This document shows positions 6,128 to 64,000 of a stretch of DNA of 64,000 nt, piece after piece. Position numbers and translations under genes: made by a program. The stretch comes from Dehalococcoidia bacterium (GTDB taxonomy: Bacteria; Chloroflexota; Dehalococcoidia; Dehalococcoidales; UBA1222): positions 59 through 64,058 of the forward strand of contig WREQ01000002.1 of the NCBI GenBank assembly GCA_009779255.1. Reading direction: 5' to 3'. The notes beneath the pieces are model-generated. The model saw only the letters and a list, made by a program, of their open reading frames with translations, did not search any database and was not told the origin of the DNA. Every line of letters begins with the position of its first letter. The first letter of the stretch is position 1.

Positions 6128-6158
<31 letters not shown>

Positions 6159-6421
6159 AAAAATTGTTCACAGCAGAGCATATTTGTCAAGTCCCTTCGC
6201 GCGAATACCCAAAAATACTCCCGCATTTTTTGGTATGACAAAGTGAACGCATAACACGACGATTAGGTATAGCACATCCTTTGAGAAAATACAAGAGGTT
6301 TTTGAGGAAAATTTCACATTTAACATTTTTATGGCGAATAATGCCCGTCATAAAAAACTTTATGGGGGAAACAGGCGGGCGATAGCAAGTCAATTGAACT
6401 TGTTGTATAATCAGTTTTGAG

Positions 6422-8763: not shown

Positions 8764-8775
8764 ACTGCGTGTGTT

Positions 8776-9578: not shown

Positions 9579-9978
9579 CACCGCACACCGGAAAAGCGCA
9601 AACGCACAAGTTAAACATTCGCTCATTATCGCCACTGAGCCCGTTCCAGACGCAGTCTGTGTAGCAGGTCAGATTGCCAGACAACAGTATTTTGCATTCG
9701 AAATAACCGATAGCTCCGGGGGCGACTACATAGAAAACACGCAGGCAGTCGATGGTGAAGACATGGCTTTCTCTTTCTGTGCTTGACCCGCAATCTCAAA
9801 CAATGACACCATCGCCACCATCCCCACTGAATTCCGACTTCCGCCCAGGAGGCCGGAATGACATGGGGGGAAAGGAGGAAAGAAGCCAAAAACTGACTGC
9901 TGATAGCTGAAGGTGGTGTGCATTTCGCCGCCCGCTGGGTTATACTTAGACGGCATTCCCCTCAAAGAAAGGATAAAG

Positions 9979-12190: not shown

Positions 12191-13450
<1,260 letters not shown>

Positions 13451-13459
13451 GGAGAAGCT

Positions 13460-14665
13460 ATGCCCGAGAGTTTTTGCTCCGACAGATATTTTTTTACATC
13501 CGAATCGGTGACCGAGGGGCATCCCGACAAAATTTGCGACCAGATCTCGGATGCAGTTCTTGATGATATATTGAGGCAGGACCCCGATGCGCATGTCGCT
13601 TGTGAAACGGCGGTCACCAACGGACTGGTGTTCGTAATGGGCGAAATTACCACAGGGGCATACGCCGACATCCAGAAAATCGCCCGCGATGTCATCCGCG
13701 ATATCGGCTACACCAAACCAGAATACGGTTTCGAATGTCAGACATGCGGCGTGATGACCTCCATAAACAAGCAATCCCCCAACATCGCGCAAGGGGTCAA
13801 CTGGTCAGCTGAGGCAAAAGCCGGGTCGACAGATCTTCTCGATGCTACAGGTGCCGGCGACCAGGGCATGATGGTGGGATTTGCCTGCGATGAAACATCG
13901 GAACTGATGCCTCTACCGATTTCGCTGGCACACAGGCTGGCACAGCAGCTGGCGCATGCGCGCAAAAGCGGCGTTGTCCCATATCTGCGCCCAGACGGCA
14001 AGAGTCAGGTGACCGCGGAATACCATAACGGCCGGGTCAAACGCGTTGACAGCATCGTTATCGGCGCTCAACACGACACCGGCATCGTCCATCAGCAAAT
14101 CACAGAGGATGTCATCGAACACATTATCAAACCGATCGTTCCGGCGGAATTGATCGACGAAAACACCAAATACTGGGTAAATGCCACCGGCACATTTGAA
14201 ATCGGCGGACCGGTATCGGATACCGGCTTCACCGGACGCAAAATCCTGGTGGACACCTACGGCGGCATGGCACGCCACGGCGGCGGAGCTTTCTCCGGCA
14301 AGGACCCAACCAAAGTGGACCGCTCGGCGGCATATTACGCGCGCTACGTTGCCAAGAATTTGGTAGCCGCCGGACTGGCTGGAAGGCTTGAACTTCAGGT
14401 TTCCTATGTCATCGGCAAAGCCCGCCCGCTTTCCGTCTCTATCGAGGCCTTTGATACCGGAAAGGTTTGTCAGGAAAAACTGATAGAACTGGTGGAAAAA
14501 TACTTCGACTTCCGCCCGGCGGCTATTATCGAGCAGCTAGGGCTGAGGAATCCGATTTACAGGCAGACGGCTGCCTACGGTCATTTCGGGCGCACCGACA
14601 TTGACCTGCCATGGGAAAAAACTGACAAAGCGGAGATGTTGCGCAAAGAAGGTTTCAGCGATTAG
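13460..14665 (+). CDS. metK: S-adenosylmethionine synthetase
   Basis: 401 aa. Motifs [56 protein letters not shown]. Confidence 0.97.
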
Positions 14666-14682
14666 TGAAGTCGGAGTGAATA

Positions 14683-16119
14683 TTGACTGACAAAACACTC
14701 ATAAAATTCGGCACCGACGGTTGGCGCGCAGTCATAGCCGAAGAGTTTACCTTTGCCAATGTGCGTCGCTGCGCTCAGGCGACCGCTGGTTACATGAAAT
14801 CGGCGCGCCTGGCCGACGCCGGCGTTGTCATCGGCTGGGACACACGCTTCAGCTCTTCCGACTTTGCCAGCGCCACCGCCCGGACGATGGCGGATACCGG
14901 CATAAAGGTCTGGTTGAGCAGGCAGGCCGTACCGACCCCTGTCATCAGCTATACCGTCGCCAGTCTGAAAGCCGGAGGCGGCATCGCCATCACCGCCAGC
15001 CACAACCCGGCTAACTGGAACGGATTCAAGTTCAAGTCACCCGATGGCGCCAGCGCCCCTGCCGCAATTGTAGAGGAAATTGAAGAGCGCATCGCGGCAG
15101 CAGACCTAGAGCTTCTTGCGGCTCCAGCACATGAAATCGAAAAAGCCTCCGTAACTACATCTGATTTCACCCTCGCCTACCTTGAGCACATCGGGAAACT
15201 GCTTGACATTGGCGTTATCCGCTCGGCGGGGCTGAAAGTGGCTGTTGACTCCATGCACGGCGCCGGCTGTGGTTGGTTCAAATCCATACTATCCGGTGCC
15301 AAAACCACTGTACATGAAATCCGTGGGGAACCGAATCCGGCTTTCCCTGGCATGAAACAACCCGAGCCAATCGCCGTCAACCTTTCAGGGTTGTCGGACG
15401 TCATCAGGCAAACCGCGACTTCAGTGGGGCTTGCCCTCGATGGGGACGCCGACAGACTGGGTATCATGGATGAACACGGTAATTTCCTGACCCAACTGCA
15501 GGTTTATGCCCTGCTGGCGCTGTATTTTCTTGAAGTGCGCGGCGAACGCGGCGCCATTGTCAAAACCATCACTACCACAAATATGCTCAACCGGCTTGGC
15601 ACACTTTTCAACGTGCCGGTTTTCGAGGTGCCAGTGGGGTTCAAATACGTAGCGCCGGTGATGCTGCGCGAGAATGCACTCATCGGCGGCGAGGAAAGCG
15701 GCGGATATGGATTCCGCGGGCATGTTCCGGAGCGCGACGGCATACTGGCCGGATTGTATTTTTTGGACTTTATGGCCAGAACAGGCAGGACACCTTCGCA
15801 GCTGCTGGCGCGCCTTTACGACCTGGTCGGGCCGCACTACTACGACCGCCGCGACGTGACCTTCGATAAGGCGCAGCGTTCCTCCATATTGGAGCGCATG
15901 CGAGAGGTTTCGCCAGAAGAAATTGCCGGATTTAAAGTTGAGAAAAAAGAAGATAACGACGGCTTCCGCTTCCTGCTTAAAGGTGGGAGCTGGCTGCTGG
16001 TGCGATTTTCTGGCACCGAACCACTGCTAAGAATCTACGCCGAGGGTGACAGCATAGACAACGTGAATCGTATACTGGAAGCTGGTGCCGCCTTGGCCGG
16101 AGTAACTGAATTATTATGA
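14683..16119 (+). CDS. phosphoglucomutase/phosphomannomutase (alpha-D-phosphohexomutase family)
   Basis: 478 aa. Active-site loop TASHNPANWNGFK and Mg-binding DGDADR. Non-ATG (TTG) start inferred. Confidence 0.9.
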   Translation: MTDKTLIKFGTDGWRAVIAEEFTFANVRRCAQATAGYMKSARLADAGVVIGWDTRFSSSDFASATARTMADTGIKVWLSRQAVPTPVISYTVASLKAGGGIAITASHNPANWNGFKFKSPDGASAPAAIVEEIEERIAAADLELLAAPAHEIEKASVTTSDFTLAYLEHIGKLLDIGVIRSAGLKVAVDSMHGAGCGWFKSILSGAKTTVHEIRGEPNPAFPGMKQPEPIAVNLSGLSDVIRQTATSVGLALDGDADRLGIMDEHGNFLTQLQVYALLALYFLEVRGERGAIVKTITTTNMLNRLGTLFNVPVFEVPVGFKYVAPVMLRENALIGGEESGGYGFRGHVPERDGILAGLYFLDFMARTGRTPSQLLARLYDLVGPHYYDRRDVTFDKAQRSSILERMREVSPEEIAGFKVEKKEDNDGFRFLLKGGSWLLVRFSGTEPLLRIYAEGDSIDNVNRILEAGAALAGVTELL

Positions 16120-17198
16120 GCCAGGTCAATCTTGACGACCCTAAGACGTATGTAACCAGCGACCCATTCGGGATGTTGCATCACATACACGACATTTCCA
16201 TGCTGTGCCAGAAAGCATGGAGGCAGGCACTGACCCTAGATCTGCCACAAAGATATTCCAGGGTGAATAAAATAGCCATATTTGGCATGGGAGGATCGGC
16301 CATCGGCGGTGATCTTCTGTCCAGTCTGGTTATCGGCGAATGCAAGGTGCCAATTTCTGTTCACCGCGGATACATCCCTCCGGCATTTATTGACGAAAAT
16401 ACACTGGTTATCGCTTCCAGCTACTCCGGCAATACCGAGGAAACGCTTGCCGCTTTTGAGGCAATACCAGACCATCACACCCCCAAGATAGTTATGACGT
16501 CAGGAGGAGAGTTGGCCGGAATAGCGCAAAAACATGACCTGCCGGCCTTCATCTTTGACTACCAATCGCCGCCGCGCGCTGCCATGCCGCTTAGTTTTCT
16601 GGCATTGCTTGGCATCCTGCACAAACTTGAACTGATTGCGGACAAGAGCGCAGACGTGGCTGAGGCCTGCGAGGTCATGGACAGACTCTCTGAGACTATT
16701 AACGAAACCTCTCCCGAACAGGAAAATCCCGCCAAACAGCTGGCGCGGCGGCTTTATGGAAACATGGCGATCATCTATGGAGCGGAGCATCTCGCAGAGG
16801 TGGCATCGCGCTGGAAAATACAGATAAACGAGAATGCTAAAGGATGGGCGGGAAGCGCCGTTTTCCCTGAACTGAACCATAACTCGACAACGGGATACGC
16901 TGTGCCAAAAGAGATCAGTGAAAAAACATTTGTGATTATGCTCCGGTCTGAATCACTTCATCCCCGCATCCTGCTAAGATACGGCATCACCAGCAAGCTT
17001 CTTGACAGGCACGCCGTAAAACATGAAACACTGACCGCCATTGGAAAAAACAAACTGGCGCAGATGTTTAGCCTTATATTATTCGGAGATTATGCGAGCT
17101 ACTATCTGGCGCTGCTATACGGGATTGACCCCTACCCTATTGAAGCCGTGGATTACCTCAAGAGGGAACTGGGAAAAAGCAAGCAGAGCGGGAGCTGA
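16116..17198 (+). CDS. bifunctional phosphoglucose/phosphomannose isomerase (SIS-domain family)
   Basis: 360 aa. ..FGMGGSAIGGDLL.. and ..SYSGNTEET... ATGA overlap with the upstream mutase gene. Confidence 0.8.
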   Translation: MSQVNLDDPKTYVTSDPFGMLHHIHDISMLCQKAWRQALTLDLPQRYSRVNKIAIFGMGGSAIGGDLLSSLVIGECKVPISVHRGYIPPAFIDENTLVIASSYSGNTEETLAAFEAIPDHHTPKIVMTSGGELAGIAQKHDLPAFIFDYQSPPRAAMPLSFLALLGILHKLELIADKSADVAEACEVMDRLSETINETSPEQENPAKQLARRLYGNMAIIYGAEHLAEVASRWKIQINENAKGWAGSAVFPELNHNSTTGYAVPKEISEKTFVIMLRSESLHPRILLRYGITSKLLDRHAVKHETLTAIGKNKLAQMFSLILFGDYASYYLALLYGIDPYPIEAVDYLKRELGKSKQSGS

Positions 17199-46530: not shown

Positions 46531-46821
46531 CTAGCCATCGCGGTTCTGGACGAAACAGTCGCTGCAGTATACCGGGCGGCCGGTGCGCGGCTCAAACGGT
46601 AACTGAGTTTCTATGCCGCAGGCGGCGCATACTGCAGGAAACATTTGCCTAGGACCTCCGCCCTGCCCACCAATCCGCGACTTCTTGGCGCCGCGGCAAG
46701 TGGAACAGCGTTTGGGGTCATTGACGAAACCTTTCTTGGCGTAGAATTCCTGCTCTGATGCGGTAAACACAAAATCCGCACCGCAGTCCACACACGAAAT
46801 AGTCCTATCCTGGTAGCTCAA
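46531..46821 (-). CDS. zinc-ribbon protein (CxxC...CxxC N-terminal ribbon plus CxxC-x17-CxxC C-terminal ribbon)
   Basis: 96 aa. CVDC..(25)..CSTC and CAAC-17 aa-CSDC, read directly. Confidence 0.8.
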   Translation of the reverse strand: MSYQDRTISCVDCGADFVFTASEQEFYAKKGFVNDPKRCSTCRGAKKSRIGGQGGGPRQMFPAVCAACGIETQLPFEPRTGRPVYCSDCFVQNRDG

Positions 46822-48585: not shown

Positions 48586-49632
48586 CTACCCATTTTTGAT
48601 GTACCTCGTGTTTCGCGCCGTGCCGACTTTTTTGATGACGCCCTCTCTGACCATAGAGCCAAGCACCGCCTCTATTGTTGTCGGGCTTACATCTGGCAGG
48701 ACATACGCCAGTTCCGCTTTCGAAACTGGAAGCAGATTGTTCAGCACGGCCGCCTCCACCCGCCGCATCTTTGTAACGCGCACACCTTGCACCACGGCAA
48801 AACGCTTGTCCAGTTCCTTGTAACACACCAGCAGCGCTTGCAGAAAGTTTTCGATGAACTGGAAATAGCTGTTCCGGTTCTCATGCCATCCGTCAGAGGA
48901 CAAGCGCAGCGCTTCATAATACATCGTCTTGGTATGGTTTATCTGTTCCTCGAAGGAGATATACCTCCCCACGTAAAACCCATTCTTGTACAGCAGGAGC
49001 AGAGAGAGCAGCCGTGACATCCTGCCGTTTCCATCCAAAAACGGGTGTATACAGAGGAAATCGAGAACAAAGCATGGTATGAGTAAAAGGCTGTTGACAC
49101 CAGCGCTGCGGCGCGCGTCCATGAAGGCCAGGAGCAACTGCTCCATCGTATCCGCCGTTTCGCTGGCCGGGGTGGGAGCAAAACGGACTTTTCGCCTGCC
49201 GGAGGCGTCCGTCTCCATGATGACGTTATCGGACTGCTTGTAGGTACCGCCGCCTGCCGAAGTATACGAAAGCATGGCGCGGTGAAGCCCCAGAATGTCA
49301 GCTTCACGCATGTCAAGCGCCTTGTAGCCATTATGGACTGCGGCGAGAGCGTCGCGGTATCCCGCTATTTCCATTTCATCATGGTTCAACGGCGCGCTGT
49401 TTTGATTGACAATCTCGGCAATACGTTTCTCACTGGTAACAATGCCTTCGATTTCATTTGACCCTTTGACGGACTGCACCCGCGCAATGCCTTCCAGACT
49501 CGTAAAGATGCCGGGATATGAATCCTTGCGGGCAATATCCAGCGCTTTGAGTTCACTGATGGCACCAGTGATGTTAAGAAGTTTAGCTGGGAGTAGACCG
49601 TTTTCCAAAAATGAGTAGTCAAAACGCTTCAT
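48586..49632 (-). CDS. Fic-family protein (putative AMP-transferase) with an N-terminal inhibitory-helix motif and a C-terminal winged-helix-like region
   Basis: 348 aa. Canonical Fic motif HPFLDGNGRMSR. Upstream SNEIEG fits the (S/T)xxxE(G/N) auto-inhibition motif. Confidence 0.9.
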   Translation of the reverse strand: MKRFDYSFLENGLLPAKLLNITGAISELKALDIARKDSYPGIFTSLEGIARVQSVKGSNEIEGIVTSEKRIAEIVNQNSAPLNHDEMEIAGYRDALAAVHNGYKALDMREADILGLHRAMLSYTSAGGGTYKQSDNVIMETDASGRRKVRFAPTPASETADTMEQLLLAFMDARRSAGVNSLLLIPCFVLDFLCIHPFLDGNGRMSRLLSLLLLYKNGFYVGRYISFEEQINHTKTMYYEALRLSSDGWHENRNSYFQFIENFLQALLVCYKELDKRFAVVQGVRVTKMRRVEAAVLNNLLPVSKAELAYVLPDVSPTTIEAVLGSMVREGVIKKVGTARNTRYIKNG

Positions 49633-51634: not shown

Positions 51635-51877
51635 CTAAAGCAGAATGACCCCGGTTATCACCAGCGCCGCCGCGATAACCAGCGCAATCCTGCCTCCGGT
51701 AATCAGAGCGCCCGGCTGCGGGCTTTCCGGATTATGGGTAAGGAATTCGCGCAGGTCTTCCTTCTGCGCCAAAGCATTATCCAAATCGACTCTTTCACGG
51801 CGTCCCCACAGAACAAACCCTATTCCCAGGCCGGCAAAAAACGCGGCCAGCACAAAAGCCCATGCGGCAGCTGACAC
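51635..51877 (-). CDS. small two-TM membrane protein (80 aa)
   Basis: GTG start preceded by AAGGAGGA. Two hydrophobic helices flank a charged loop. Confidence 0.6.
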   Translation of the reverse strand: MSAAAWAFVLAAFFAGLGIGFVLWGRRERVDLDNALAQKEDLREFLTHNPESPQPGALITGGRIALVIAAALVITGVILL

Positions 51878-52113: not shown

Positions 52114-53763
52114 CTACCTCAGCTCCAGCTCTTTCTTCTTTTTATCAAAGATGAGCACGACGACAAGAATCTCCAGGATGAAGATAGTCGCGTTCACAAT
52201 GGTCCAAATGTCCACCAGCCGCACAGGCATGCTCATGTCCTCGGTCAGGAAGAAGACGATGACGCCGATAACAGCCAGGATGCCGACAACGAACAGCCAG
52301 AGGTACTTCACTGTGCGGACTTCCTGGTGGCCTTCTTTATCTTTGACACCATTCCACAAGAAGGCTCTGATCAACACCAGAACGGCCAGCAGCACCCCCA
52401 GGAGACAGAGGATGAGGTTGACGAGCGCCCATGGGTCGCCGTCTGAAGGCGGCGGCGGCGGATCACCACCCGTCGTCTGCGTCCAGTTGGCCCTTACGGT
52501 GACGTCGTTTGCCGGCATGGTGAAGGTGGTGGTGGCGCTGCTTGAGTTAGCCAGCGTAACGCCGCCCGAAACAACCGTCCAGCCAATGAAGGTATATCCG
52601 TCTCTGGCGCCGGCGTGGATGGTTACGACATTGCCGGGGGTGTAAGTGCCAGCGCCGGTGGTAGAAGCATAGCTGTCGTTGACGTAGACGGTATAGGCAG
52701 GAGGAGGCGGCGGGGAAGTCGTCTGTGTCCAATTGGCTCTTACGGTGACGTCGTTTGCCGGCATGGTGAAGGTGGTGGTGGCGCTGCTTGAGTTAGCCAG
52801 CGTAACGCCGCCCGAAACGACTGTCCAGCCCGCAAAGGTATATCCGTCTCTGGCGCCGGCATTGATGGTTACAACACTGCCAGGGGTGTAAGTGCCAGCG
52901 CCGGTGGTAGAGGCATAGCTGTCATTGACGTAGACGGTATAGGCAGGAGGAGGCGGCGGAGAAGTCGTCTGTATCCAATTGGCTCTTACGGTGACATCGT
53001 TTGCCGGCATGGTAAAGGTGGTGATACCGCTGTTTGGAGTAAACAGGGTCACGCCGCCGGAAACGACCGTCCATCCGGTGAAGGTATATCCGTCTCTGGC
53101 GCCGGCATGGATGGTTACGACCTCACCTTGGGCATAAGTCCCAGCGCCCGTGGGAGAAGCATAGCTGTCGTTGACGTAGACTCTATAGGCGGGCGGCTGC
53201 GGGGTGGCGGTAGTGGGAGGGGCGATATAAGAATGATTATAGCTTATACCATCGACCTTATCGCCAGCCTGGTTGCGGATAACCACTGTTGTTATGTCAT
53301 GCTCACTGCCGGCACGGACTTCAATGGTATACACCGCGTCGTCATAGGAATAACCAGGGAGACCGTGGGACGTAATATGGGTAAGGTCATAAGTATAGGT
53401 ACCGGTAGCCGCCACGCTGAAATCCAGAATGAGAGGCTGGTTCACCGTACCCGCCAGGGTAAAGATATAACTACCAGAATCAATGTAGCCACCGCTGATG
53501 TTGCTTGGCAAGGGATGGAAAGGCGTCCTTGGGGTAAGCTTATAGGTAAAACCAGCATTCGGAGCTGCTGCCGTATCGCCGGTAAAGTGCTGTTCAACGC
53601 TCTGGGTAACCACGCCCGGGGCCGCCATCACTGCAGGCGGGGTACCCAGGATATTCCCAAGCAGACAAACGGCTAAAATGACAGGGAGGGCAACCCCACC
53701 GACTTTGCCTATTTTAGCCTGGAGTATTCTTTTTATACCGGAAAGCATGGTGGTCATATTCAT
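52114..53763 (-). CDS. membrane-anchored pilin-domain / Listeria-Bacteroides-repeat surface protein (candidate basal pilus subunit)
   Basis: 549 aa. Signal peptide, then an FctA/Spy0128-like pilin-type segment (GFTYKLTP.., GTYTYDLTH...YSYDDAVYTIEVR). Three 82-aa repeats (..GYTF.GWTVVSGGVTL...FTMPANDVTVRANW) with PPPPP linkers. Three C-terminal TM helices and a KKKK tail. No sorting motif. Confidence 0.8.
   Translation of the reverse strand: MNMTTMLSGIKRILQAKIGKVGGVALPVILAVCLLGNILGTPPAVMAAPGVVTQSVEQHFTGDTAAAPNAGFTYKLTPRTPFHPLPSNISGGYIDSGSYIFTLAGTVNQPLILDFSVAATGTYTYDLTHITSHGLPGYSYDDAVYTIEVRAGSEHDITTVVIRNQAGDKVDGISYNHSYIAPPTTATPQPPAYRVYVNDSYASPTGAGTYAQGEVVTIHAGARDGYTFTGWTVVSGGVTLFTPNSGITTFTMPANDVTVRANWIQTTSPPPPPAYTVYVNDSYASTTGAGTYTPGSVVTINAGARDGYTFAGWTVVSGGVTLANSSSATTTFTMPANDVTVRANWTQTTSPPPPPAYTVYVNDSYASTTGAGTYTPGNVVTIHAGARDGYTFIGWTVVSGGVTLANSSSATTTFTMPANDVTVRANWTQTTGGDPPPPPSDGDPWALVNLILCLLGVLLAVLVLIRAFLWNGVKDKEGHQEVRTVKYLWLFVVGILAVIGVIVFFLTEDMSMPVRLVDIWTIVNATIFILEILVVVLIFDKKKKELELR
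52465..53196 (-). repeat. three tandem ~246-bp coding repeats
   Basis: Repeat starts PAYRVYVND / PAYTVYVND / PAYTVYVND at residues 191, 273 and 355. Copies 2 and 3 are almost identical at the DNA level by eye. Confidence 0.9.
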
Positions 53764-53764
53764 C

Positions 53765-54709
53765 CTACCCCTCGTATTGCAAATTGCGGTGGTTACGGCG
53801 ACGTTTGTTCCGCATGATTAAGAACAGAATCAGTACCAGGAAGAGAACCAGCAGGATTACGATGATAATCTTGCCCCACAGTGGGATACTCTCCCACAGG
53901 CCAGGAAGACCATCAACCGCCTTGGACTCTCCAATAAGTTTGTTCGTTTCCGACTCGTTAAAAGTTTCATAGGTAATCCTCCCGATAAGGATATCCCGTC
54001 CGCTGGTGGAGGAGCTGGAACAGGTGGCGAGGAGGATAATCCGATCCGAGGTGTCAACCCCGATATCGCGGGAATGGATGGCCATTTCCCCAATGCGATC
54101 AAGATATGCCTGTTGGGCTGGCTGCCCCGTGACGCGGGGATGGAAAATCTGGTAATCATAAGCACTGGTGTGGATAAAAGCGAAGAACTCCAGCCCGTAT
54201 TCTTTGCCATCATAATACAACATACCGTAAGGACGGGCTTCAAAATATTTCTGGTCGGCGAAGTTCCCAATCTCCCCGAACATGACCTGTTTTTCCATGT
54301 GGTGCCCGTAAATGATAGAGTTGAAATCGGAAAAATTCCGACTGCTACTGGCATCAATGAATATGGCGCCGGACAGGGAATATTTCCCTTCGGCGTTGGT
54401 ATTGACATACTTGAGGTTGTTTCTCCCCTGAACTACGGGATAGTCGATATTGGTGCCGTAGACCGTAAGCCAGGCGCAGACATCAGTGTTAATTGCCTGG
54501 AGTCTGGTAAAGGCCTCCCCGGCGTTCTCAGCTGTGGGTTTATATATCTCATAGCGGGCGGCGCTGGCAGCACCTGTGACTTGGTTGGAATCCCACATGG
54601 CGTAGCAGCCGATAGTAATAAGTAGCATCAAAGACATCAGAACGACGGTGTCTAAAACACCATGCGCCGCCTTGATGGCCCTCTTTCCTATCTTAACTGC
54701 TACGCTCAT
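53765..54709 (-). CDS. sortase, class B-like, with an extra C-terminal TM helix
   Basis: 314 aa. N-terminal anchor. ..NTDVCAWLTVYGTNIDYPVVQG.., His motif IYGHHM, Cys motif LLATC, Arg in SGRDILIG. C-terminal IIIVILLVLFLVLILFLI plus RNKRRR. Confidence 0.88.
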   Translation of the reverse strand: MSVAVKIGKRAIKAAHGVLDTVVLMSLMLLITIGCYAMWDSNQVTGAASAARYEIYKPTAENAGEAFTRLQAINTDVCAWLTVYGTNIDYPVVQGRNNLKYVNTNAEGKYSLSGAIFIDASSSRNFSDFNSIIYGHHMEKQVMFGEIGNFADQKYFEARPYGMLYYDGKEYGLEFFAFIHTSAYDYQIFHPRVTGQPAQQAYLDRIGEMAIHSRDIGVDTSDRIILLATCSSSSTSGRDILIGRITYETFNESETNKLIGESKAVDGLPGLWESIPLWGKIIIVILLVLFLVLILFLIMRNKRRRNHRNLQYEG

Positions 54710-54751: not shown

Positions 54752-56173
54752 TTAGGAGATAACCGGTTCCTCTTGGTTGTCTTTCCTTTTGCGGGACTTG
54801 ATGGCCACGAAGAGTACGAGGCCGCCGACAGCCAGAACAATGAGGCCTACGAAGGCCAGGGTGTTCAGGTTGAGGCCGGTGGGCGGATCTTCGCTGTAGG
54901 TGTTGGTGAACAGGGCATAAGAATCACCCTGCTCAATGTCGCCTACATACAGGTTGGGGATGGGGGTGGCGTCAGCGGTGGGATCGTTGACGTTCAGGTA
55001 GACAACAGGGATGCCGAGGGGAGAGGCAACAGTGCTGCTCCAGCCGCCCTTAGCGTTGCCGTAGGCTTCGCCGTTAAGGTAAACAACGGCAAATGGGTAG
55101 TACTTGACAGCTCCGGCTTCGGCGACGGCGTAGGTGGCACTAGCCTCCAGGCCGGAGAAGAAGACCAGGCGCTGGCCGTCTTCCAGTGTGATACCGGTCT
55201 TCGCTACACCAGAGATGAATTCAATGTAGAGACCGTAGGCGCTAGTACCGGCAGAGTCGTTGACGTTGGTGACGTTAAGCCACGTACCAGGGTTGAGGAT
55301 GTCTTCCTGCATGACGGCAGCCCAGTACACTGAGGTGTTGTCAACGGTAGCAGGCTGGGTGACGGTCACGGTGAAATCAAAAGAGGTTACGGTACCGCCG
55401 ACGATATCCTTTTGAATGTACAGGAAGCCTTTGCCGTCGGTGGGGGTAGTGGTGTCGAATATGCGGTCGATGGTGTTGGTGAAAGCCAGGCCGTAGGCGC
55501 CTCCGCTGGTATCTACCTTGCCCAGGGTATCGGTAAAGTCATCGCCGAAGTCATCAACAGCCTTGAAGCCATAGACGCCGAAGATATAGAGGTCACCGAC
55601 TTGATGGTCAGGGCAACCAGCAGTATTGCATTCCTCAATGACGACGTAGAGGTAATACACGGCCTCGGAATAGTGCAGGTAGTCCTCGTAGTCAACACCG
55701 TCGGCTGTTACGTCGTCGCCAAGGAAGGCAGGGTTGGTGGCAGGCACGGTTTCCACAATCTCGTAGATGTAAATACCGGCAAGGCTCCAGGTAACGGCGT
55801 CTAAATCAATCTTTTCTTCCGCGTAGTAGTTGTCGTAGCCGTTAGGAACGGCAATGTCAGCTGCAGTCTCGTTGCCGTCAAAGGAGATGATGACGGTGTT
55901 GGCGCCACTAGTGACAAAGGTAAGCCCGGGCATGGTACTAGCGACGGTCTTATCGCCATTAAAGGAATACGGGGTGATGGTGAATTCAAAGTCGAGAGCG
56001 CCCGAATAGTTCGTAAATACAATACCGGAGGGGACCTTCAGCACTTTGGTAACGTAGGCTTCGGTGATAGCGTCTGGATCCACGGGGTCGGCCATAACAG
56101 ACACCGGCAGTGTTGTAAGACACAGCGCCAGCGTCATCAGGGAGGCCAAGGCTAGTTTGAGTTTCTTGGTCAT
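54752..56173 (-). CDS. two-domain pilin-like sortase substrate (candidate backbone pilin), sorting signal DPPTG
   Basis: 473 aa. Signal peptide ..LPVSVMA/DP. ..IYIYEIVETVP...YSEAVYYLYVVIEE... Two domain-terminal FTNT motifs. C-terminus EDPPTG, hydrophobic helix, KSRKRK. Confidence 0.85.
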   Translation of the reverse strand: MTKKLKLALASLMTLALCLTTLPVSVMADPVDPDAITEAYVTKVLKVPSGIVFTNYSGALDFEFTITPYSFNGDKTVASTMPGLTFVTSGANTVIISFDGNETAADIAVPNGYDNYYAEEKIDLDAVTWSLAGIYIYEIVETVPATNPAFLGDDVTADGVDYEDYLHYSEAVYYLYVVIEECNTAGCPDHQVGDLYIFGVYGFKAVDDFGDDFTDTLGKVDTSGGAYGLAFTNTIDRIFDTTTPTDGKGFLYIQKDIVGGTVTSFDFTVTVTQPATVDNTSVYWAAVMQEDILNPGTWLNVTNVNDSAGTSAYGLYIEFISGVAKTGITLEDGQRLVFFSGLEASATYAVAEAGAVKYYPFAVVYLNGEAYGNAKGGWSSTVASPLGIPVVYLNVNDPTADATPIPNLYVGDIEQGDSYALFTNTYSEDPPTGLNLNTLAFVGLIVLAVGGLVLFVAIKSRKRKDNQEEPVIS

Positions 56174-56279: not shown

Positions 56280-57047
56280 CTAGAGTCCTCTCCAGCGCAA
56301 GATAGTAATAACCGAACCCTTGGTGTCCTTGACGTTCACGGCTCCGTAGATACGGCTGTCGGTAGCGCTGGCTCGGGCATCACCCAAAACGAAGACCTCA
56401 TCTGCCTTTAACAGCATGGGAAAGCTGACGTCGCTCATGTACCGCTCGGTCTTCTCATAAATATCCGGCTCCTGCACCAAGGCGCTGTTCACCAGTAGGC
56501 CGTGGGTGTTGATATCAACAGTATCCCCTGCCACAGCCACCACCCTGCGAACCTGGGTCTGCCCCTCAAAGGTCAGGAGGAGAAGGTCGCCGGGTTCGTA
56601 GGACTTGTCCCAACGGTAATACATCACCAGGTCCCCGTCCTTCATCGCCGGAACCATCCCGGGTTCGCTGTTGTAGTGAATGCCATAGACAAAAGTGAAA
56701 GCCGCCACGGCCACGGCCACAATGATGCCGATTTTTGCTCCCAACCCCCCCAGCTCCCGCAGGAAAGAGTAGGAAGAAGAGCGGCGGGCAGGCGCCTTAG
56801 GGCGCGGCGGGACAGGGGTTGCGCCGCTACCCTCACTGCAAGTGGAAGTCGCGCTGCCAACCCCAGCAGGCCTTTTGCCCAACTCTACCTGGGAGGCAGA
56901 CGACACCTTTCCCTCACTGTGGCCGGAGGATATCACGGCATCGCTCCTGCCGGGTGGCGGCAAGATGACGGTATCCTCCCCCGAGGTGGGGGCAGGCAAA
57001 CCAGACGGGTTATTGTTTGAATCCATCTTGTCTTCAAGTCTCTCCAT
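56280..57047 (-). CDS. signal peptidase I (S26) homologue lacking the Ser/Lys dyad (SipA/LepA-like pilus accessory protein)
   Basis: 255 aa. Pro/Ser/Gly-rich N-terminal region, one TM. GMVPAMKDGD aligns to SMxPTLxxGD (Ser to Gly130). VRRVVAVAGD aligns to xKRxxGxPGD (Lys to Arg167). GDARASATDSR box retained. Confidence 0.8.
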   Translation of the reverse strand: MERLEDKMDSNNNPSGLPAPTSGEDTVILPPPGRSDAVISSGHSEGKVSSASQVELGKRPAGVGSATSTCSEGSGATPVPPRPKAPARRSSSYSFLRELGGLGAKIGIIVAVAVAAFTFVYGIHYNSEPGMVPAMKDGDLVMYYRWDKSYEPGDLLLLTFEGQTQVRRVVAVAGDTVDINTHGLLVNSALVQEPDIYEKTERYMSDVSFPMLLKADEVFVLGDARASATDSRIYGAVNVKDTKGSVITILRWRGL

Positions 57048-57050
57048 AGA

Positions 57051-60000
57051 TTAGGCTGCCTGATCGGCGCGGCGACGTGACTTCCATGTGGTAAATGACG
57101 CCACAGCACCTAAGGCCAGAGCGATGAGACCAAGGAAGTGTTGTCCTCCCAGAGAAAGACCAGTGGGCGGAACAACGGCGTCCCAATGATTAGTGAATGC
57201 GAACTCGCGGTCAATCGTTATGGCATGAAGCTCGGTATCATTGCCTACCGTGACAGAGGTGCCTTCGCTGTCGGTAAAAGAGACCATGTAGGGGATAGGC
57301 ATCGGGTTGCCATTGGCATCCACACCAAGGAAATCCACTGTCTCGACGACTCTGATAAAGCCTACCAGCGGGACGCCCGCTATCACGATGTGCTGGCCGT
57401 GCTTGAGGTAGAATGTCGCAGCGCCGTTAGCATCCAGCCTCAACGTGCCGGTTTTGTCCACAGTTGTGCCGGTGTAGATGACGTAGCCAAACTCCGTGCC
57501 CACCGCAAACGGCGTGGGCAGGATGGGATTGGGCGTCGCACTCGGGTCGCCCTGGTCGCTGAAGAAGTACACCGTAAACTCCCAGTCCATGGTCGGGTTG
57601 CCCATCTTGCCTGTCACTGTCTTGCTCACCGTCAATGTCGTGCCGGAATTTATGTAGTTAATCTGGTCGTTGGTCAGTAGCGCGCCGTCGAATTGGCTGT
57701 TGATGCGGGTGATGGCGCTGAGGAGCGCATAGTTGACCGGCGGCGTATAACTTTGTCCCGCCGTGTTCCCGATTACCATCGCCGTACCGCCGCTCACGAC
57801 AATACCGTCTGCGATTCTGATGTTGCCGTAGGCAATGCTCGGGAACTTAAGTGGGTTGTTGTACGCGTTATGTGTGACGCCGCCGTCATTGCTGTCGCGC
57901 CATTCCGTGTAGATGCCGCCGCCGTCCTGCGTTGCCGTGTTGTCCGAGATGACGCCGCCGGTCATTTCGAGAACGCCGTCGATGGTCACATACACGCCGC
58001 CGCCATTGGCATTGGCCTTATTACCAGGAATCTTACCGCCGTTCATGGTAAATGAGCCATCGTTGTAAACGCCGCCGCCGTTGGTAGCTGTGTTGGCATC
58101 AGGGGCATTCTCACCGCCGATCGTGCCGCCGGTCATGGTAAAAGTTCCGGCACTATACACACCGCCGCCATTGTTGACTGCCGTATTACCAGAAACCTTA
58201 CCGCCTTCCATGGTAAATGTGCCGCCAACGGCTACATACACGCCGCCACCGTTGTTTGCTATGTTGCGGTTGATAACGCCATCACCAGGCTTCTCAAAGA
58301 CACCGCTGGCGCCTACGTATATGCCGCCGCCGTCGCTGGCAGCTCTATTATTAGAAACAGCACAGTTATCCCCCATTTCAAACGCGCCGTTATTATATAC
58401 GCCGCCGCCGAACGAAGCTTCGTTGTAGCTGATCTCGCCGTTGTAGTTCCTCATCTCAAAAATGCAGCCGCTCGCAATATACACGCCGCCGCCAAGTTCA
58501 GCCGTGTTCGCATGCCCGTTAACGCCAATGGCGCCACCGTACATCTCAAACCTGCTTGCGTTGGTAACATACACACCGCCGCCGTCATCAATTGCTGTAT
58601 TACCGGAAATCTCACCGTTAAACAAGGTGAAGAAAGACGCATCGGCTACATATACGCCACCACCCAGGGTCGCAGTGTTGCCTCTAATGACGGGAACGAT
58701 AGTATCGCTGGACATTTCGAATTCGCCGTTGATTGCGCACACGCCGCCGCCATACTCAGCCGTATTGCCACTGATCTCGCCGCCTTTGATAACAAGCCGC
58801 TTGCCTGCTGTGCTATTGCTGACGTAATACACGCCGCCACCGCCGCCAACTGCCGTGTTGTCGCTGATGGTGCCGGCTTCTATAACGAAGCTACCGCTAC
58901 TTCCGTCATAATACACGCCACCGCCATCCTGCGATGCCGTGTTGTCGGAGATAACGCCGCCTTTCAGGATGAAGCCGCTGGCAATGCTACTTCCGTCATA
59001 ATACACGCCGCCGCCGTTGGTAGCTGTGTTGCCGGAGATGGCACCGTCTTCCATGATGAAGCTGTTGACAGTGCTGCTTCCGTCATAATACACGCCGCCG
59101 CCGTTGGATGTTGCCGTATTGCCGGAGATCGTGCCGTCTTCCAGGGTGAACGTGCCGGCGTTGTAAACACCGCCGCCGTTGGATGTTGCCGTATTGCCGG
59201 AGATCTTGCCGTCTTCCATGGTAAAGGTGCCCCAGTTGTAAACGCCGCCGCCGCGGGCAGCTGTGTTGGCATCAGAGGCATTCTCGCCGCCGATCGTGCC
59301 GCCGGTCATGGTAAAAGTTCCGGCATTATACACGCCGCCGCCAACGCCATTGGTCGCATTACCAGAAATCTTACCGCCTTCCATGGTAAAGGGTCCCTCG
59401 TTGTAAACGCCGCCGCCGGCGGATGTTGCCGTATTGCCGGAGATGGTACCGTCTTCCATATTGAACGTGTCGACGTTGTAAACACCGCCGCCGATTGTTG
59501 CCGTATTGCCGGCGATCGTGCCGCCTTCCATGGTAAAGAGGCCCTCGTTGTAAACGCCGCCGCCGTTGGTAGCTGTGTTGGCATCAGAGGCATTATCACC
59601 GCCGATCGTGCCGCCGGTCATGGTGAACGTGCCACTGTTAAGCACACCGCCGCCAGATGCTGCCGTATTGCCGGAAATCGTGCCGTCTTCCATGGTAAAG
59701 GTGCCCTCGTTGAAAACACCACCGCCGCCGTCCTGCGTTGCAGTATTGCCGGAGATGGTGCCGTCTTTCATGGTGAAGGTGCCGCCGACATAGATATAAA
59801 CGCCGCCGCCGCCGAATGCTGCCGTATTGCCGGAAATCGTGCCGTCTTCCATGGTGAAGGTGCCGCCGACATAGATATAAACGCCGCCGCCATCGGTAGC
59901 TGTGTTGGCATCAGAGGCATTCTCGCCACCGATCGTGCCGCCGGTCATGGTGAAGGTACCCATCATGAAGCTACAAACGCCGCCGCCGATTGATGCCGCA

Positions 60001-63000
60001 TTGCCGGAGATGGTGCCGTCTTCCATGGTGAATGTACTGGCGTTGAAAACACCGCCGCCGTTGCCGCCACTGGATGTTGCCGTATTGCCGGAGATCGTGC
60101 CGTCTTTCATAGTAAAGGTGCCACTGTTAAGCACGCCACCGCCGCTGCCGAGTGTTGCCGTATTGCCGGAGATCGTGCCGTCTTCCATGGTGAACGTGCC
60201 GACGTTATATACACCGCCGCCGTTGTAGGTGACTTTGTTGCCGGAGATGACGCCGCCGGTCATGGTGATTGTGCCTGTGCCACTGTTGGCCACACCGCCG
60301 CCATTGCTGATTGCCGTATTACCAGAGATGGCGCCGCCTTTCATAGTGAAGGTGCCGCCGAAGTTGCTGATGTAAACGCCGCCGCCGGTGTCATTCTTAC
60401 AATTCGTTATCACAGCACCGTCTTCCATGGTGAAGGCGCCGCCGTTATTCACCGCCACACCGCCGCCAGTGACATCCGTGTCATCGCCGTCAAGGATGAT
60501 ATTGCTGATGGTTAGGCTGCCATTTACAGTGAGGTGCCGATTTGTACTGAGCTGCGTAATCGTCCACTGGTTACCAGTGTCCGACGTGAGGGTGATGTTT
60601 TTGCCCGCCGGTATGACCACCGCCGCGTTCTTATACGACGTAGCGATTGGCCCCTTCGGATCAGTTCCGGCAAAGTCAGACATATCGAGGTCATCTTCCA
60701 GCGCAACTATCGTCCACGGATTTCCCGTATTTGTCGGGTCGCAAGCCGCAACCGCGTCTGCCAGCCAGTAGTAGGTGCCAATGAGGGTGCCTGTAGCGGG
60801 GGTGCCGTCCCAGACTTGGTAGCGATCGGGGATCGGCGAGGTAACAATAAGGTCATCGCCGCTGACGCCTATGATATAGCCGGGTATTGCGGTCGCTGCA
60901 GAGGAATGCAACGTGAAATGCGACGCATTCGAGTTAATGGCACCATCGACGACCAGCACCGCCGTTGCAGGCGGGACCGGCCATGCGGACGTGGGTGTTG
61001 CGCCATAACCCAGGCGGACCTCAACAGGGATCGTCGGGGTGAACGTTGCTGGAGTAGACAAGCCGCCCGTGTTAACCAAGACCGTTCCCGTTATCGTCGG
61101 GGAACCGCTCAGGCTGACAAGCCCTCCGGCCACATTGTTGTAGACCGCATAACCTGTGGTGGCCGAGACAGAGCCGCCGTTGATGTTGATAGAACCGGTC
61201 ATTTGGTTGAATATCGCATAGCCTGTCGTGGCCGATACATTGCCGCCGCTGATGTTGACCATGCCAGTCGAGTGGTTGTTGATCGCCCTGCCGGTGGTGG
61301 CAGATACCGTTCCGCCGCTGATTGTGATGGTGCCAGCATTATCGTTGTAGATCGCTCTGCTGTTGGTGTTGTTTGCGTTGTTCTGTACTTTGCCGCCGGT
61401 GATCGTGAGGATATTATTGCCGGCTGTGCCGCCTGCAAGATATATCGTGCCCTGAGCAGCAGCCGGATTATCCGAAGTGACCTCTGTGGGGATCGTGGAG
61501 GTTGTTTCCGATATTGTTATCAGGCCTGTCGAGTTGTTGTATATCGCAACCCCGACCGTGGCCGAGACAGTGCCGCCGCTGACATTGATCGCGCCAGTCG
61601 AATTGTTGTAGACCGCCATGCCGCTTGTGGCCGAGACCCTTCCGCCACTGATGTTGACCGTGCCGGCACCATTGTTAAAGATCGCGTTGCCGCCGGCTGC
61701 GGTGTTCTCCACTATACCGCCGGTGATCGTGAGGACACCACCTACATGGCGTATCGTACCCTGAGCGCTGTTGGTATGCGCCGAAGTGATCCTTGTGGGG
61801 ATCGTGGAGGTTGTTTCCGATATCACGATCGTGCCAACCACCTGGTTGTTGATCGCAATGCCAGTGCCGGACGATACCGTTCCGCCGCTGATTGTGAGCG
61901 TCGCACTGGTAGATTGGTTGACGATCGCAGCGCCGGTGGTGGACGATACCGTTCCGCCGGTGATCGTGACCGGACCGCCTGACGATCCGGTGAGGATCGT
62001 AGTGCCGGTGCCGGACGACACTATTGCCGAACCGCTGATTGTGACCGCGCCTGCCCCGAAGTTGTAGATCGCCATGCCTGTGTCAGTGGCCGAGACCGTG
62101 CCGCCGGTGATGTTGACCGTGCCGGTCGATTGGTGCCAGATCGCCCTGCCGGTCGTCGCCGTGACAGCGCCGCCAGTGACGGTGACCGTACCTGTCCCGG
62201 CGGTGCCGATCGTCCCGTTGACGCCAGTCGATGAGACCACACCGCCGGTGACGGTGAGGTTACCGCTGTTGACCTGTACGGCACGCGCATTAGACTGTGT
62301 GTTGGAGTTGTTTATTGCGCCGGTGCTTGTGACGTTCACGCCGGAGCTGATGTTAATTACACCGGTGGCCACCGAGCCGGTGGTATTGGCCGTAATCGAG
62401 CCGCCCAGAGTTATGTTGCCCCAGTTCTCAGAGAGTGCTGTACTGTTCTCGAACGTTATATTCTGCGAACCTATGTTGAGCTGGCCTGTGCCGGTGTATG
62501 GTGTGGTGGCCGTGTTTAGTGCGTTCGCGAAGAATATGCTGCAAGCGTTACCTTCCGCATCCGCGCGTATCAGGTCTATCAGGTTCTGAACGTTGGTGTT
62601 GGTATAACCGGCGCCGCCTATCTGATAGTGTGAGCCGTCGTCCATGAATCCAATCGCCGCAAAGGCGGATGTGCTTACGTACACTATGTACTCATAGGTC
62701 TTATCGAGTGCCCTAAGGACAAGGTTATTCCCGACCTCAATTATCTCGAAACCTGCGCCGGACGGCTGGTGAAGCTGGAAGCTGTTCAGATAGCTTGTGC
62801 CGTTGACATTAGCTCCGTTCACCACAACGACGTCGCCGTGTGCGTAAGCGGCTAACTGGACCGTATACATCTTGCTTACGGGCGCAAACGGCGTGCCAGT
62901 TGTGAGAGCGGTCAGTCTGTTCTGGGTGACGTAGATCGTTCCCGTTATGGTCGGATTGCCGCCGAGATTCACTGCTCCTGCCGCCGCATTGCAATAGACC

Positions 63001-64000
63001 GCATAAACGTCGCCCGTGACCGTGCCGCCGGTGATGTTCACGATCCCGGAACTTGCGTTGTATATCGTGCGGGCGTTGGCATTGGCCGCAGTGTTCGATA
63101 CCGTGCCGCCGGATATGTTGATCGTTCCGCCTGCTACGTTGCGTATCGTACCCTGGGTGTTGTTAGTGTTCGCCGATGTCACGATCGTCGGGACGGTGCT
63201 CGACGCTTCGGATATCGTTATCACTCCGAGGGAGGAGTTCCAGATCGCCACGCCTGCGCCGCTCTGTACCGTGCCGCCGGATATATTGACCGCTCCGGTG
63301 GAGACATTCTCGAGCGCGTGGGCAGCACCGGTGTTCCGCACCGTGCCGCCGGATATGTCAATCGTTCCGTTGAATTGGTTCACGATTGCGGAGTACGGGC
63401 TGTTGGCTGATACCATGCCGCCGGATATCATTATCACTCCGCTGGAGTTGTTCCGGATCGCGACGCCGCCGTTGGCTGAGACCGTACCGCCGGTGATGTT
63501 CACAATCCCGGAACCTGCGTTGTATATCGTGCGGGCGTTGCCATTGGCCGAGGGATTCGATACCGTGCCGCCGGATATGTTGATCGTCCCGCCTACGACA
63601 TTGTGTATCGTGCCGCTGGTGGCGGATACGTTCGCCGATGTCACGAGCGTCGGGTTGGTGCTCGACGCTTCGGATATCGTTATCACTCCGGTGGAGTCGT
63701 TCCATATCGCCGCGCCTGTGTTGCTCCGGACCGTACCTCCGGATATGCTGACCGTGCCGGCCCCATTGTTAAAGATCGCGTTGCCTGTGCCGGTGTTCTC
63801 GATCAAGCCGCCGGTGATCGTAAGCCTCGGCCCCGTGGTCGCGCCTGAGGAGATGTCGATCACGTAACTTCCGGGGTTCCCTCTTATGATCGTCGGGTTC
63901 GACGTTTCCGATATCGTTACATGCCCCGTGCTTAAGCTGTATATCACCCTGCCCGAGCCTGTGTTCACTACCGTACCGCCGGATATGTCGATCGCTCCGG
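57051..64000 (-). CDS. giant beta-helix-repeat surface adhesin, sorting signal VPPTG (5'-truncated by the window edge)
   Basis: The frame is open to position 64000 (codons upstream of the listed GTG read ..GAIDISGGTVV..), giving more than 2,300 aa. Two repeat families: ISGGTVSxxxGxAIxN, and GGGVYxxGTFTMxxGxISGNTA. C-terminal CnaB/pilin-like domain (TVSKTVTG...AFTNHW), then VPPTG, TM, KSRRR. Confidence 0.9.
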   Translation of the reverse strand, partial: GAIDISGGTVVNTGSGRVIYSLSTGHVTISETSNPTIIRGNPGSYVIDISSGATTGPRLTITGGLIENTGTGNAIFNNGAGTVSISGGTVRSNTGAAIWNDSTGVITISEASSTNPTLVTSANVSATSGTIHNVVGGTINISGGTVSNPSANGNARTIYNAGSGIVNITGGTVSANGGVAIRNNSSGVIMISGGMVSANSPYSAIVNQFNGTIDISGGTVRNTGAAHALENVSTGAVNISGGTVQSGAGVAIWNSSLGVITISEASSTVPTIVTSANTNNTQGTIRNVAGGTINISGGTVSNTAANANARTIYNASSGIVNITGGTVTGDVYAVYCNAAAGAVNLGGNPTITGTIYVTQNRLTALTTGTPFAPVSKMYTVQLAAYAHGDVVVVNGANVNGTSYLNSFQLHQPSGAGFEIIEVGNNLVLRALDKTYEYIVYVSTSAFAAIGFMDDGSHYQIGGAGYTNTNVQNLIDLIRADAEGNACSIFFANALNTATTPYTGTGQLNIGSQNITFENSTALSENWGNITLGGSITANTTGSVATGVINISSGVNVTSTGAINNSNTQSNARAVQVNSGNLTVTGGVVSSTGVNGTIGTAGTGTVTVTGGAVTATTGRAIWHQSTGTVNITGGTVSATDTGMAIYNFGAGAVTISGSAIVSSGTGTTILTGSSGGPVTITGGTVSSTTGAAIVNQSTSATLTISGGTVSSGTGIAINNQVVGTIVISETTSTIPTRITSAHTNSAQGTIRHVGGVLTITGGIVENTAAGGNAIFNNGAGTVNISGGRVSATSGMAVYNNSTGAINVSGGTVSATVGVAIYNNSTGLITISETTSTIPTEVTSDNPAAAQGTIYLAGGTAGNNILTITGGKVQNNANNTNSRAIYNDNAGTITISGGTVSATTGRAINNHSTGMVNISGGNVSATTGYAIFNQMTGSININGGSVSATTGYAVYNNVAGGLVSLSGSPTITGTVLVNTGGLSTPATFTPTIPVEVRLGYGATPTSAWPVPPATAVLVVDGAINSNASHFTLHSSAATAIPGYIIGVSGDDLIVTSPIPDRYQVWDGTPATGTLIGTYYWLADAVAACDPTNTGNPWTIVALEDDLDMSDFAGTDPKGPIATSYKNAAVVIPAGKNITLTSDTGNQWTITQLSTNRHLTVNGSLTISNIILDGDDTDVTGGGVAVNNGGAFTMEDGAVITNCKNDTGGGVYISNFGGTFTMKGGAISGNTAISNGGGVANSGTGTITMTGGVISGNKVTYNGGGVYNVGTFTMEDGTISGNTATLGSGGGVLNSGTFTMKDGTISGNTATSSGGNGGGVFNASTFTMEDGTISGNAASIGGGVCSFMMGTFTMTGGTIGGENASDANTATDGGGVYIYVGGTFTMEDGTISGNTAAFGGGGVYIYVGGTFTMKDGTISGNTATQDGGGGVFNEGTFTMEDGTISGNTAASGGGVLNSGTFTMTGGTIGGDNASDANTATNGGGVYNEGLFTMEGGTIAGNTATIGGGVYNVDTFNMEDGTISGNTATSAGGGVYNEGPFTMEGGKISGNATNGVGGGVYNAGTFTMTGGTIGGENASDANTAARGGGVYNWGTFTMEDGKISGNTATSNGGGVYNAGTFTLEDGTISGNTATSNGGGVYYDGSSTVNSFIMEDGAISGNTATNGGGVYYDGSSIASGFILKGGVISDNTASQDGGGVYYDGSSGSFVIEAGTISDNTAVGGGGGVYYVSNSTAGKRLVIKGGEISGNTAEYGGGVCAINGEFEMSSDTIVPVIRGNTATLGGGVYVADASFFTLFNGEISGNTAIDDGGGVYVTNASRFEMYGGAIGVNGHANTAELGGGVYIASGCIFEMRNYNGEISYNEASFGGGVYNNGAFEMGDNCAVSNNRAASDGGGIYVGASGVFEKPGDGVINRNIANNGGGVYVAVGGTFTMEGGKVSGNTAVNNGGGVYSAGTFTMTGGTIGGENAPDANTATNGGGVYNDGSFTMNGGKIPGNKANANGGGVYVTIDGVLEMTGGVISDNTATQDGGGIYTEWRDSNDGGVTHNAYNNPLKFPSIAYGNIRIADGIVVSGGTAMVIGNTAGQSYTPPVNYALLSAITRINSQFDGALLTNDQINYINSGTTLTVSKTVTGKMGNPTMDWEFTVYFFSDQGDPSATPNPILPTPFAVGTEFGYVIYTGTTVDKTGTLRLDANGAATFYLKHGQHIVIAGVPLVGFIRVVETVDFLGVDANGNPMPIPYMVSFTDSEGTSVTVGNDTELHAITIDREFAFTNHWDAVVPPTGLSLGGQHFLGLIALALGAVASFTTWKSRRRADQAA
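57911..60480 (-). repeat. array of degenerate ~22-25-codon coding repeats (GGGVY..GTFTM.DG.ISGNTA)
   Basis: Dozens of recurrences are visible both in the translation and as recurring DNA strings (e.g. ggtgccgtcttccatggtgaa, acgccgccgcc). Boundaries are approximate. Confidence 0.85.

Follow-up and report, generated by a model that had tools for sequence, protein, structure and literature searches.

To our knowledge, all characterised sortase pili end by transfer of the basal pilin to peptidoglycan precursors. The FCT-3 locus of Streptococcus pyogenes has the gene order cpa-sipA-fctA-srtC2-fctB. The PI-2 locus of Streptococcus pneumoniae (pitA-sipA-pitB-srtG1-srtG2) also depends on SipA, and we know of no dedicated basal pilin gene after its sortase. 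The components of FCT-3, the VPPTG/QVPTG motifs and the requirement for SipA have been described, as has the basal pilin FctB (ap2; from S. pyogenes pili of FCT types 2, 3 and 4), which is without an internal isopeptide bond and has an LPXTG/LPLAG signal, SrtA attaching it to peptidoglycan (PMC7900414). The linking lysine of FctB sits on an omega loop (PMC8244301). Here we describe a related locus from a Dehalococcoidia bacterium. It lies in a stretch of 64,000 nucleotides (nt), analysed as a whole and called the window (contig WREQ01000002.1 of assembly GCA_009779255.1). The last gene of a pilus-type operon, at 52114-53763 on the reverse strand (stop codon included), encodes a protein of 549 amino acids (aa) that has an FctB-like domain at its N-terminus and a three-helix membrane anchor, the FILTED domain, at its C-terminus. 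This protein is probably the base subunit, both terminator and anchor, of a sortase pilus of FCT-3/PI-2 type, with the fibre transferred to its lysine K169.

Structure of the 549 aa protein

The open reading frame (ORF) is identical to NCBI MCL2678821.1, a record of the same 549 aa sequence with the title 'MAG: InlB B-repeat-containing protein [Dehalococcoidia bacterium]'. The protein begins with a signal peptide at residues 1-48 (53620-53763), recognised by hydropathy and charge, with a basic n-region, a hydrophobic core and a probable cleavage site between AVMA and AP, as read from the sequence. Four hydrophobic stretches were found in all, and the one in the signal peptide (residues 16-48) is the first of them.

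The signal peptide is followed by an immunoglobulin (Ig)-like domain of FctB/FctA-N type at residues 47-185 (53209-53625). A profile of this domain, A1, was made from a five-sequence alignment of the window protein and its relatives P0126, P0161, P0174 and P0231. Searched against PDB, it matched the T-antigen backbone pilin 8f70 (4.4e-13), FctB3 8k6t (2.6e-6), FctB 3klq (7.2e-6) and Spy0128 3b2m (1e-4). The AlphaFold2 model of the domain (predicted local distance difference test, pLDDT, 86) gave the same assignment: the top Foldseek match in PDB was FctB (3klq_B, E 7.5e-7, probability 1.00) and the next was the N-terminal domain of Spy0128, with an identity to FctB of about 17-19%. The pilin-type N-terminal segment recognised in the original prediction, which was made from the sequence of the window, is thus borne out by sequence profile as well as by predicted fold.

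The domain holds just two lysines, one of which is K169 (codon 53257-53259, in the context GDKVDGISY). Conservation and alignment make it the candidate acceptor. K169 is invariant in six of six subfamily sequences, that is, the five aligned sequences and the protein of locus L019, while the rest of the domain is 33-41% identical across the subfamily. It is located between the penultimate and the last strands of the AlphaFold2 model, and in the profile alignment it falls at most one residue from FctB Lys110, a numbering derived from P117N (PMC7900414). An acceptor lysine had been anticipated for this domain, and the model and the alignments together supply a conserved candidate in the loop that leads to the last strand. 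In the five-sequence alignment the lysine of the first strand is variable (K, V, Q or R), the position at which FctA carries a catalytic Glu is an invariant His, and the last strand is without a conserved Asn at +2. The domain therefore lacks the triad for an intramolecular Lys-Asn isopeptide bond, a bond that FctB does not have either. The profile matches and the modelled fold support homology of the domain to FctB/FctA-N, and the conserved lysine is a candidate acceptor within it.

Three InlB B-repeats with TSPPPPP linkers come after the Ig domain (52472-53190). Pfam Flg_new_2 (PF18998, divergent InlB B-repeat) was found in three copies (E 5.9e-46, 154.8 bits against a gathering threshold of 23.6), and TIGR02543 also in three, in agreement with the three Listeria-Bacteroides-type repeats joined by PPPPP linkers that had been predicted. 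At the DNA level 52472-53190 is a tandem array with a period of 246 nt, 2.9 copies and 89% matches. A proline-rich juxtamembrane stalk, GGDPPPPPSDGDP (52432-52473), leads to the membrane anchor and was found as first described; no sortase motif was matched in it.

The anchor, at residues 445-545 (52129-52431), matches NCBIfam NF052597.1, 'FILTED domain-containing surface protein', with an E-value of 1.1e-24 and a score of 86.9 bits, the cut-off being 40. Its three transmembrane (TM) helices lie at approximately 445-467, 488-507 and 520-540, with the motifs WALVNLIL, FFLTEDM and LVDIWTIVNA, and are followed by KKKKELELR. The name FILTED probably comes from the motif seen here as FFLTEDM. With four K/R the TM1-TM2 loop has a net charge of +1; the charge is -2 in the TM2-TM3 loop and +3 in the tail. 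This pattern fits a topology with the N-terminus outside and the C-terminus inside, which the first loop supports weakly. The signal peptide, the three helices and the KKKK tail are thus all present as predicted, and so is the lack of a sorting signal: no match to [LIVNDQ]Px[TSA][GNDA], PPTG, an LPXTG-type motif or PxTG was found anywhere in the 549 aa, and no cleavable PxTG-type signal turned up. The anchor itself is not new, as it belongs to a curated family whose members are mostly found far from sortases and often in archaea.

Comparison with related loci

Among about 160 proteins retrieved with the FILTED domain, the N-terminal domain is common to the window protein and four others (P0126, P0161, P0174 and P0231). 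With two further proteins, at loci L019 and L066, the number of complete proteins combining the FctB-like and FILTED domains is seven. A class B sortase or a sortase substrate is encoded directly upstream in all six complete cases with readable upstream DNA, the window included. Synteny is full at the locus of P0126 (L004), where an adhesin (IVPPTG), SipA, a pilin (NTPPTG) and srtB precede the gene. At L019, from a metagenome-assembled genome (MAG) of Coriobacteriia, the upstream genes are an adhesin, SipA, two pilins and srtB, and in the protein a run of 23 prolines separates the Ig domain from FILTED. A sortase adjoins the gene of P0161 (L008), and a gene with a sorting signal adjoins those of P0231 (L005) and P0174 (L006/7). 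At L065 a sortase is also adjoining upstream; the contig stops before the C-terminus and the FILTED tail is unseen. The upstream contig of L066 is too short to judge.

The closest relatives of the N-terminal domain without FILTED are P0272-P0275, minor pilins of 180-283 aa that are positive for TIGR03786. They were found with A1 in an index of 5.8 billion proteins, in a search that missed known members of the subfamily. They keep the same lysine context (GGKVEKIEF and similar), but differ from the window protein in carrying cleavable wall-sorting signals: their ends have KTGD, LAQTG, LPLTG and LPKTG, with a single TM helix and a basic tail behind. The FILTED tail therefore occupies the exact place of the sorting signal in homologues. 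An adhesin-pilin-SipA-pilin-srtB operon ends with the gene of P0272. Judged from these sequences, the same slot in homologous operons is filled either by a classical FctB-like pilin with a sorting signal or by one with a FILTED tail.

The other members of NF052597 share the motifs and the three-helix layout with the window protein. They differ in that they typically have InlB B-repeats and no sortase at the locus, and many are from Bathyarchaeia and Methanomassiliicoccales. Those in which an FctB-like pilin domain is fused to the anchor in a pilus operon make up a small subfamily, with 92-126 bits on the NF052597 model.

Measured against FctB, which is the best structural match (3klq, 8k6t), the window protein has in common the Ig-like fold, the absence of an internal isopeptide, the lysine in the loop that precedes the final strand, the proline-rich segment behind the domain, and the place of its gene at the end of the operon, behind sipA, fctA and a class B-type sortase. 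It differs in having no sorting signal, in its three-TM FILTED end and in the three added InlB B-repeats that separate this end from the Ig domain. On the basis of this comparative evidence the reading as a basal pilin appears well supported.

The pilus operon

The gene order, all on the reverse strand, is adhesin, SipA-like protein, backbone pilin (DPPTG), class B sortase and the 549 aa gene. The ATG of the last gene is 1 nt past the stop codon of the sortase, and both order and spacing agree with the fctB position that had been assigned to it.

The sortase (314 aa, 53765-54709) is of class B pilus type (TIGR03064, 183.2 bits against a cut-off of 153.75) and has TM segments at its N- and C-terminus. 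Its closest solved relatives are PDB 4y4q (deposited as 'Sortase, SrtB family', 1e-67), which we take to be SrtG1 of S. pneumoniae PI-2, and Spy0129 (3psq, 1e-43); the GHH and TC...GR motifs align. Along with the dependence on SipA this is the likeness to PI-2, while the dedicated and conserved last gene is, as far as we know, a difference from it. The backbone pilin (473 aa, 54752-56173) ends in a DPPTG signal, a TM helix and a KSRKRK tail. It has a weak match to DUF7601, no sequence match in PDB, and was not picked up by profile A1; its orthologues hold the same operon position in L004, L019 and L005. The 255 aa protein at 56280-57047 (PF10502, S26) is a SipA/LepA-like non-catalytic homologue of signal peptidases, with S. 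pyogenes SipA (4n31, 2.3e-17) and LepA (4k8w) as best PDB matches. Comparison by eye with the canonical box B and box D sequences shows Gly in place of the catalytic Ser (GMVPAM) and Arg in place of the catalytic Lys (VRRVVAVAGD).

The first gene, an ORF from 57051 to 64000 that runs past the window, is a candidate for a giant tip adhesin. It ends with a VVPPTG sorting signal, then a TM helix and basic residues, and pilus ancillary protein 1 is a weak match for its C-terminus. The listed length of 2305 aa, from a GTG start at 63968, is incorrect, since the frame is open to the window edge and the protein has 6268 aa in an independent assembly. This longer call is from ENA assembly ERZ27257304 (k141_4245263). 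The adhesin is repeat-rich, with repeats of GGGVY type. The sequence comparisons support assignment of the operon to the FCT-3 type, its SipA being non-catalytic and its class B sortase of pilus type.

Distribution and conservation of the FILTED domain

An exhaustive HMMER search gave 2087 representatives of FILTED homologues at E <= 1e-3, against 5 matches when only the C-terminal 120 aa were used in a word-indexed search; a search with the whole protein was dominated by B-repeat proteins. Homologues come from Bathyarchaeia, Methanomassiliicoccales, Dehalococcoidia, Coriobacteriia and Firmicutes. In host proteins of 90-3400 aa the domain almost always sits at the C-terminus, a median of 9 residues lying beyond it. 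Conserved motifs are WALxNLIL, LTED and VDxWTIVN, and W4, A5, N8, L9, G15, G59, T66, D77 and W79 of the alignment are invariant. The AlphaFold2 model of the domain has helices at 2-29, 46-67 and 73-98 (pLDDT 72); no significant structural analogue was found in PDB, all matches having E > 1. The domain is of interest apart from the pilus, being highly conserved and common to archaea and bacteria, and no paper mentioning a 'FILTED domain' was found in the literature search.

A scan of genomes gave 53 FILTED loci, almost all from termite-gut MAGs. Archaea account for 33 (Ca. Bathycorpusculum 22, 'Nitrososphaerota archaeon' 10, Ca. Methanoplasma 1), Dehalococcoidia/Dehalococcoidales for 7, Coriobacteriia/Coriobacteriales for 6 and Firmicutes for 7; these counts are biased towards close relatives, since the scan used a six-sequence FILTED alignment and narrow patterns. 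The distribution suggests, as far as sequence data go, a habitat-linked horizontal spread of a FILTED surface-anchor cassette among bacteria and archaea of the termite gut.

Some further features of the family were observed. Polar and aromatic invariants are found within the membrane or at its edge: W-A-x-x-N-L in TM1, T-E-D after TM2 and D-x-W-T-x-x-N at the start of TM3, which also often has an E. The motif [IVTM]P[LF] is present 6-18 residues before WAL in 36 of 119 FILTED proteins (IPLSG, VPLVG, VPLDQG), the window protein not among them. Small ORFs of about 100-125 aa consist of FILTED alone (P0002, P0003, P0129 and others) and may be stand-alone proteins or truncated gene calls. P0264 (L069/L070, GCA_017434325.1) is a protein of 833 aa with Cna_B and FILTED. 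Its neighbours are an S26 peptidase, a protein with a transglutaminase core and T2SSF/T2SSE, with no sortase nearby; the context is a different pilus-like one.

Proposed function and alternative explanations

If the 549 aa protein is the base subunit, the class B sortase and the SipA-like protein would polymerise the 473 aa pilin through the threonine of DPPTG, and the sortase would then move the growing fibre from the DPPT-thioester onto K169. An acceptor without a sorting signal offers no donor for a further round, and polymerisation is therefore proposed to stop at this step. The finished fibre would be held at the cytoplasmic membrane by the stable three-helix FILTED domain, with no need for a housekeeping sortase or lipid II, and the B-repeats and polyproline linkers may serve as a spacer that takes the base of the fibre across the envelope layer. 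The fibre is thus probably tethered to the membrane and not to the cell wall. Such a permanently membrane-embedded terminal acceptor was part of the original prediction, and it gains from the homology of the N-terminal domain, the candidate lysine, the polytopic anchor in place of a sorting signal and the conserved context. The parts are already known, namely the pilus machinery of FCT type, the FctB fold, the InlB B-repeats and the curated FILTED domain. What seems new is the FILTED membrane anchor in place of a cell-wall sorting signal on a basal pilin; no prior description was found, and literature searches for sortase pili in Chloroflexota and for membrane-anchored basal pilins gave nothing relevant. 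If true, an integral-membrane basal pilin would be a second way to end and hold a sortase fibre, and would explain how a sortase pilus could work where a wall acceptor is absent. Five genes and one predicted Thr-Lys bond would also make a simple test system.

Several points weigh against this function. About 250 residues of repeats part the acceptor domain from the membrane, whereas FctB carries a short polyproline tail only, and the reach to a membrane-bound sortase is puzzling. A class B sortase is encoded within 10 kb at only one of the 53 FILTED loci. Co-occurrence with sortase loci, named beforehand as a check on the prediction, was found for the combination of FctB-like and FILTED domains but not for the FILTED tail alone. 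As FILTED is mostly without a sortase nearby and often archaeal, it is a general surface-protein anchor rather than a pilus device, and by itself carries no information on pili. The conservation of its polar residues exceeds the needs of a passive anchor, which hints at a role beyond anchoring. Finally, the proline-rich segment before TM1 reads PPPPPSDGDP in the window (within 52432-52473), PPTTDGG in P0126 and PPPPLSGA in L019 (9179-10465), and the cognate operon substrates have PPTG in the window, PPTG at the locus of P0126, and PPSG, PESG and EETG in L019. The near-motifs PPSDG in the window and PPLSG in L019 leave room for processing; they may be a vestigial sorting motif or due to chance in a proline-rich stalk. 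A degenerate sorting motif before TM1 was also considered as such and rated unlikely.

One alternative is a stand-alone, membrane-anchored adhesin that is co-transcribed with the pilus genes and never joined covalently to the fibre, in which the FctB-like domain is no more than an Ig module at the distal end of a B-repeat stalk held by FILTED. For the most part, FILTED proteins are surface proteins with B-repeats and have no link to a sortase (Flg_new repeats in 47 of 69 mid-sized proteins, an FctA domain in 3), no sortase was found nearby at the individually inspected contexts L001-L003 or at 52 of the 53 genome loci, and over its repeats and anchor the window protein shares 46-58% identity with FILTED B-repeat proteins, which suggests a cassette origin. 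An adhesin of this kind is nevertheless unlikely. It leaves unexplained that the FctB-like and FILTED combination adjoins a sortase or a substrate at every locus where the upstream DNA can be read, that the linking lysine is invariant in a domain with 33-41% identity elsewhere, and that classical relatives with sorting signals fill the same operon slot. Moreover, other members of the subfamily are without B-repeats and consist of the FctB-like domain, the stalk and the anchor.

The invariant polar residues within the membrane (N in TM1, T-E-D, D-x-W-T-x-x-N) could instead form an interface with a partner or an oligomer. The protein would then be a non-covalent assembly platform, on which FILTED docks the sortase, SipA or nascent pilins and the N-terminal domain chaperones or caps the fibre. 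The TM segments at both ends of the sortase would suit such docking, and with a start codon 1 nt past the sortase stop the two proteins are likely made together. The FILTED motifs are, however, equally kept in archaeal proteins without a sortase or SipA partner, which makes it unlikely that such an interface is peculiar to the pilus machinery. Acceptor chemistry explains the conserved lysine better, and we hold a platform to be quite improbable. Least probable of the explanations considered is that FILTED acts as an elaborate sorting signal, cut in the proline-rich segment before W445, with the protein passed to the wall, an S-layer or another acceptor. TM1 followed by a loop containing K/R does resemble the layout of a sorting signal, near-motifs are seen 3-10 residues before TM1 (PPSDG in the window, PPTTDG in P0126, PPLSG in L019), and about 30% of FILTED proteins have [IVT]P[LF] 6-18 residues before TM1. 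Yet the 549 aa protein has no true PxTG-type motif, two extra conserved TM helices would be superfluous for a signal that is cleaved, the segments upstream of FILTED are highly variable across the family, and the domain is abundant in archaea without sortases.

Host and cell wall

An origin of the operon in a mis-binned or chimeric insert was considered and rejected, given the linkage in an independent assembly, matching GC content and the gene content of the contig, which is taken as a genuine part of its host. The GC content is 0.562 for the operon and 0.555 for the window outside it, the contig carries a cluster with ribosomal-protein genes, rpoA and secY, and two independent assemblies agree on the locus.

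The membrane-anchored pilin was originally regarded as a solution for a peptidoglycan-less monoderm, which was not sustained. Coriobacteriia normally have a wall, and the same design is present in a Coriobacteriia MAG; adaptation to wall loss is therefore not established, although the design permits wall-independent anchoring. No peptidoglycan genes were found among the ORFs scanned within the 64 kb window. The families Dehalococcoidaceae and Dehalobiaceae are here assumed to be members of Dehalococcoidales, which would make loss of peptidoglycan in the host plausible. Termite-gut MAGs of Dehalococcoidia were assigned to these two families (PMC7024585). Peptidoglycan is ancestral in Dehalococcoidia, and loss is limited to orders 10-25, Dehalococcoidales among them (PMC10284905; bioRxiv 10.1101/2021.08.23.457424). 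Membership of the class alone is thus no sign of a wall-less cell. It can tentatively be proposed, with somewhat more doubt than confidence, that the pilus is naturally wall-independent and serves peptidoglycan-less Dehalococcoidia, FILTED being a mobile cassette of bacteria and archaea in the termite gut.

Neighbouring genes

An ORF of 80 aa on the same strand (51635-51877) lies 236 nt downstream of the 549 aa gene. It is hydrophobic at both ends, has no family match and is also called in the independent assembly; a promoter-like site was noted between the two genes. A Fic-domain protein (48586-49632, reverse strand) is located within a stretch of lower GC content (0.50, 48-50 kb), and a zinc-ribbon protein with the pattern CxxC-x17-CxxC (46531-46821, reverse strand) is encoded between shikimate genes and the pilus operon. 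On the forward strand at 1207-17198, archaeal-type NCBIfam models were the best matches for housekeeping genes: TldD (Arch_mtprotase_TldD), GlmM (Arch_GlmM), a bifunctional PGI/PMI and a proteasome-assembly-chaperone family protein (6422-7222).

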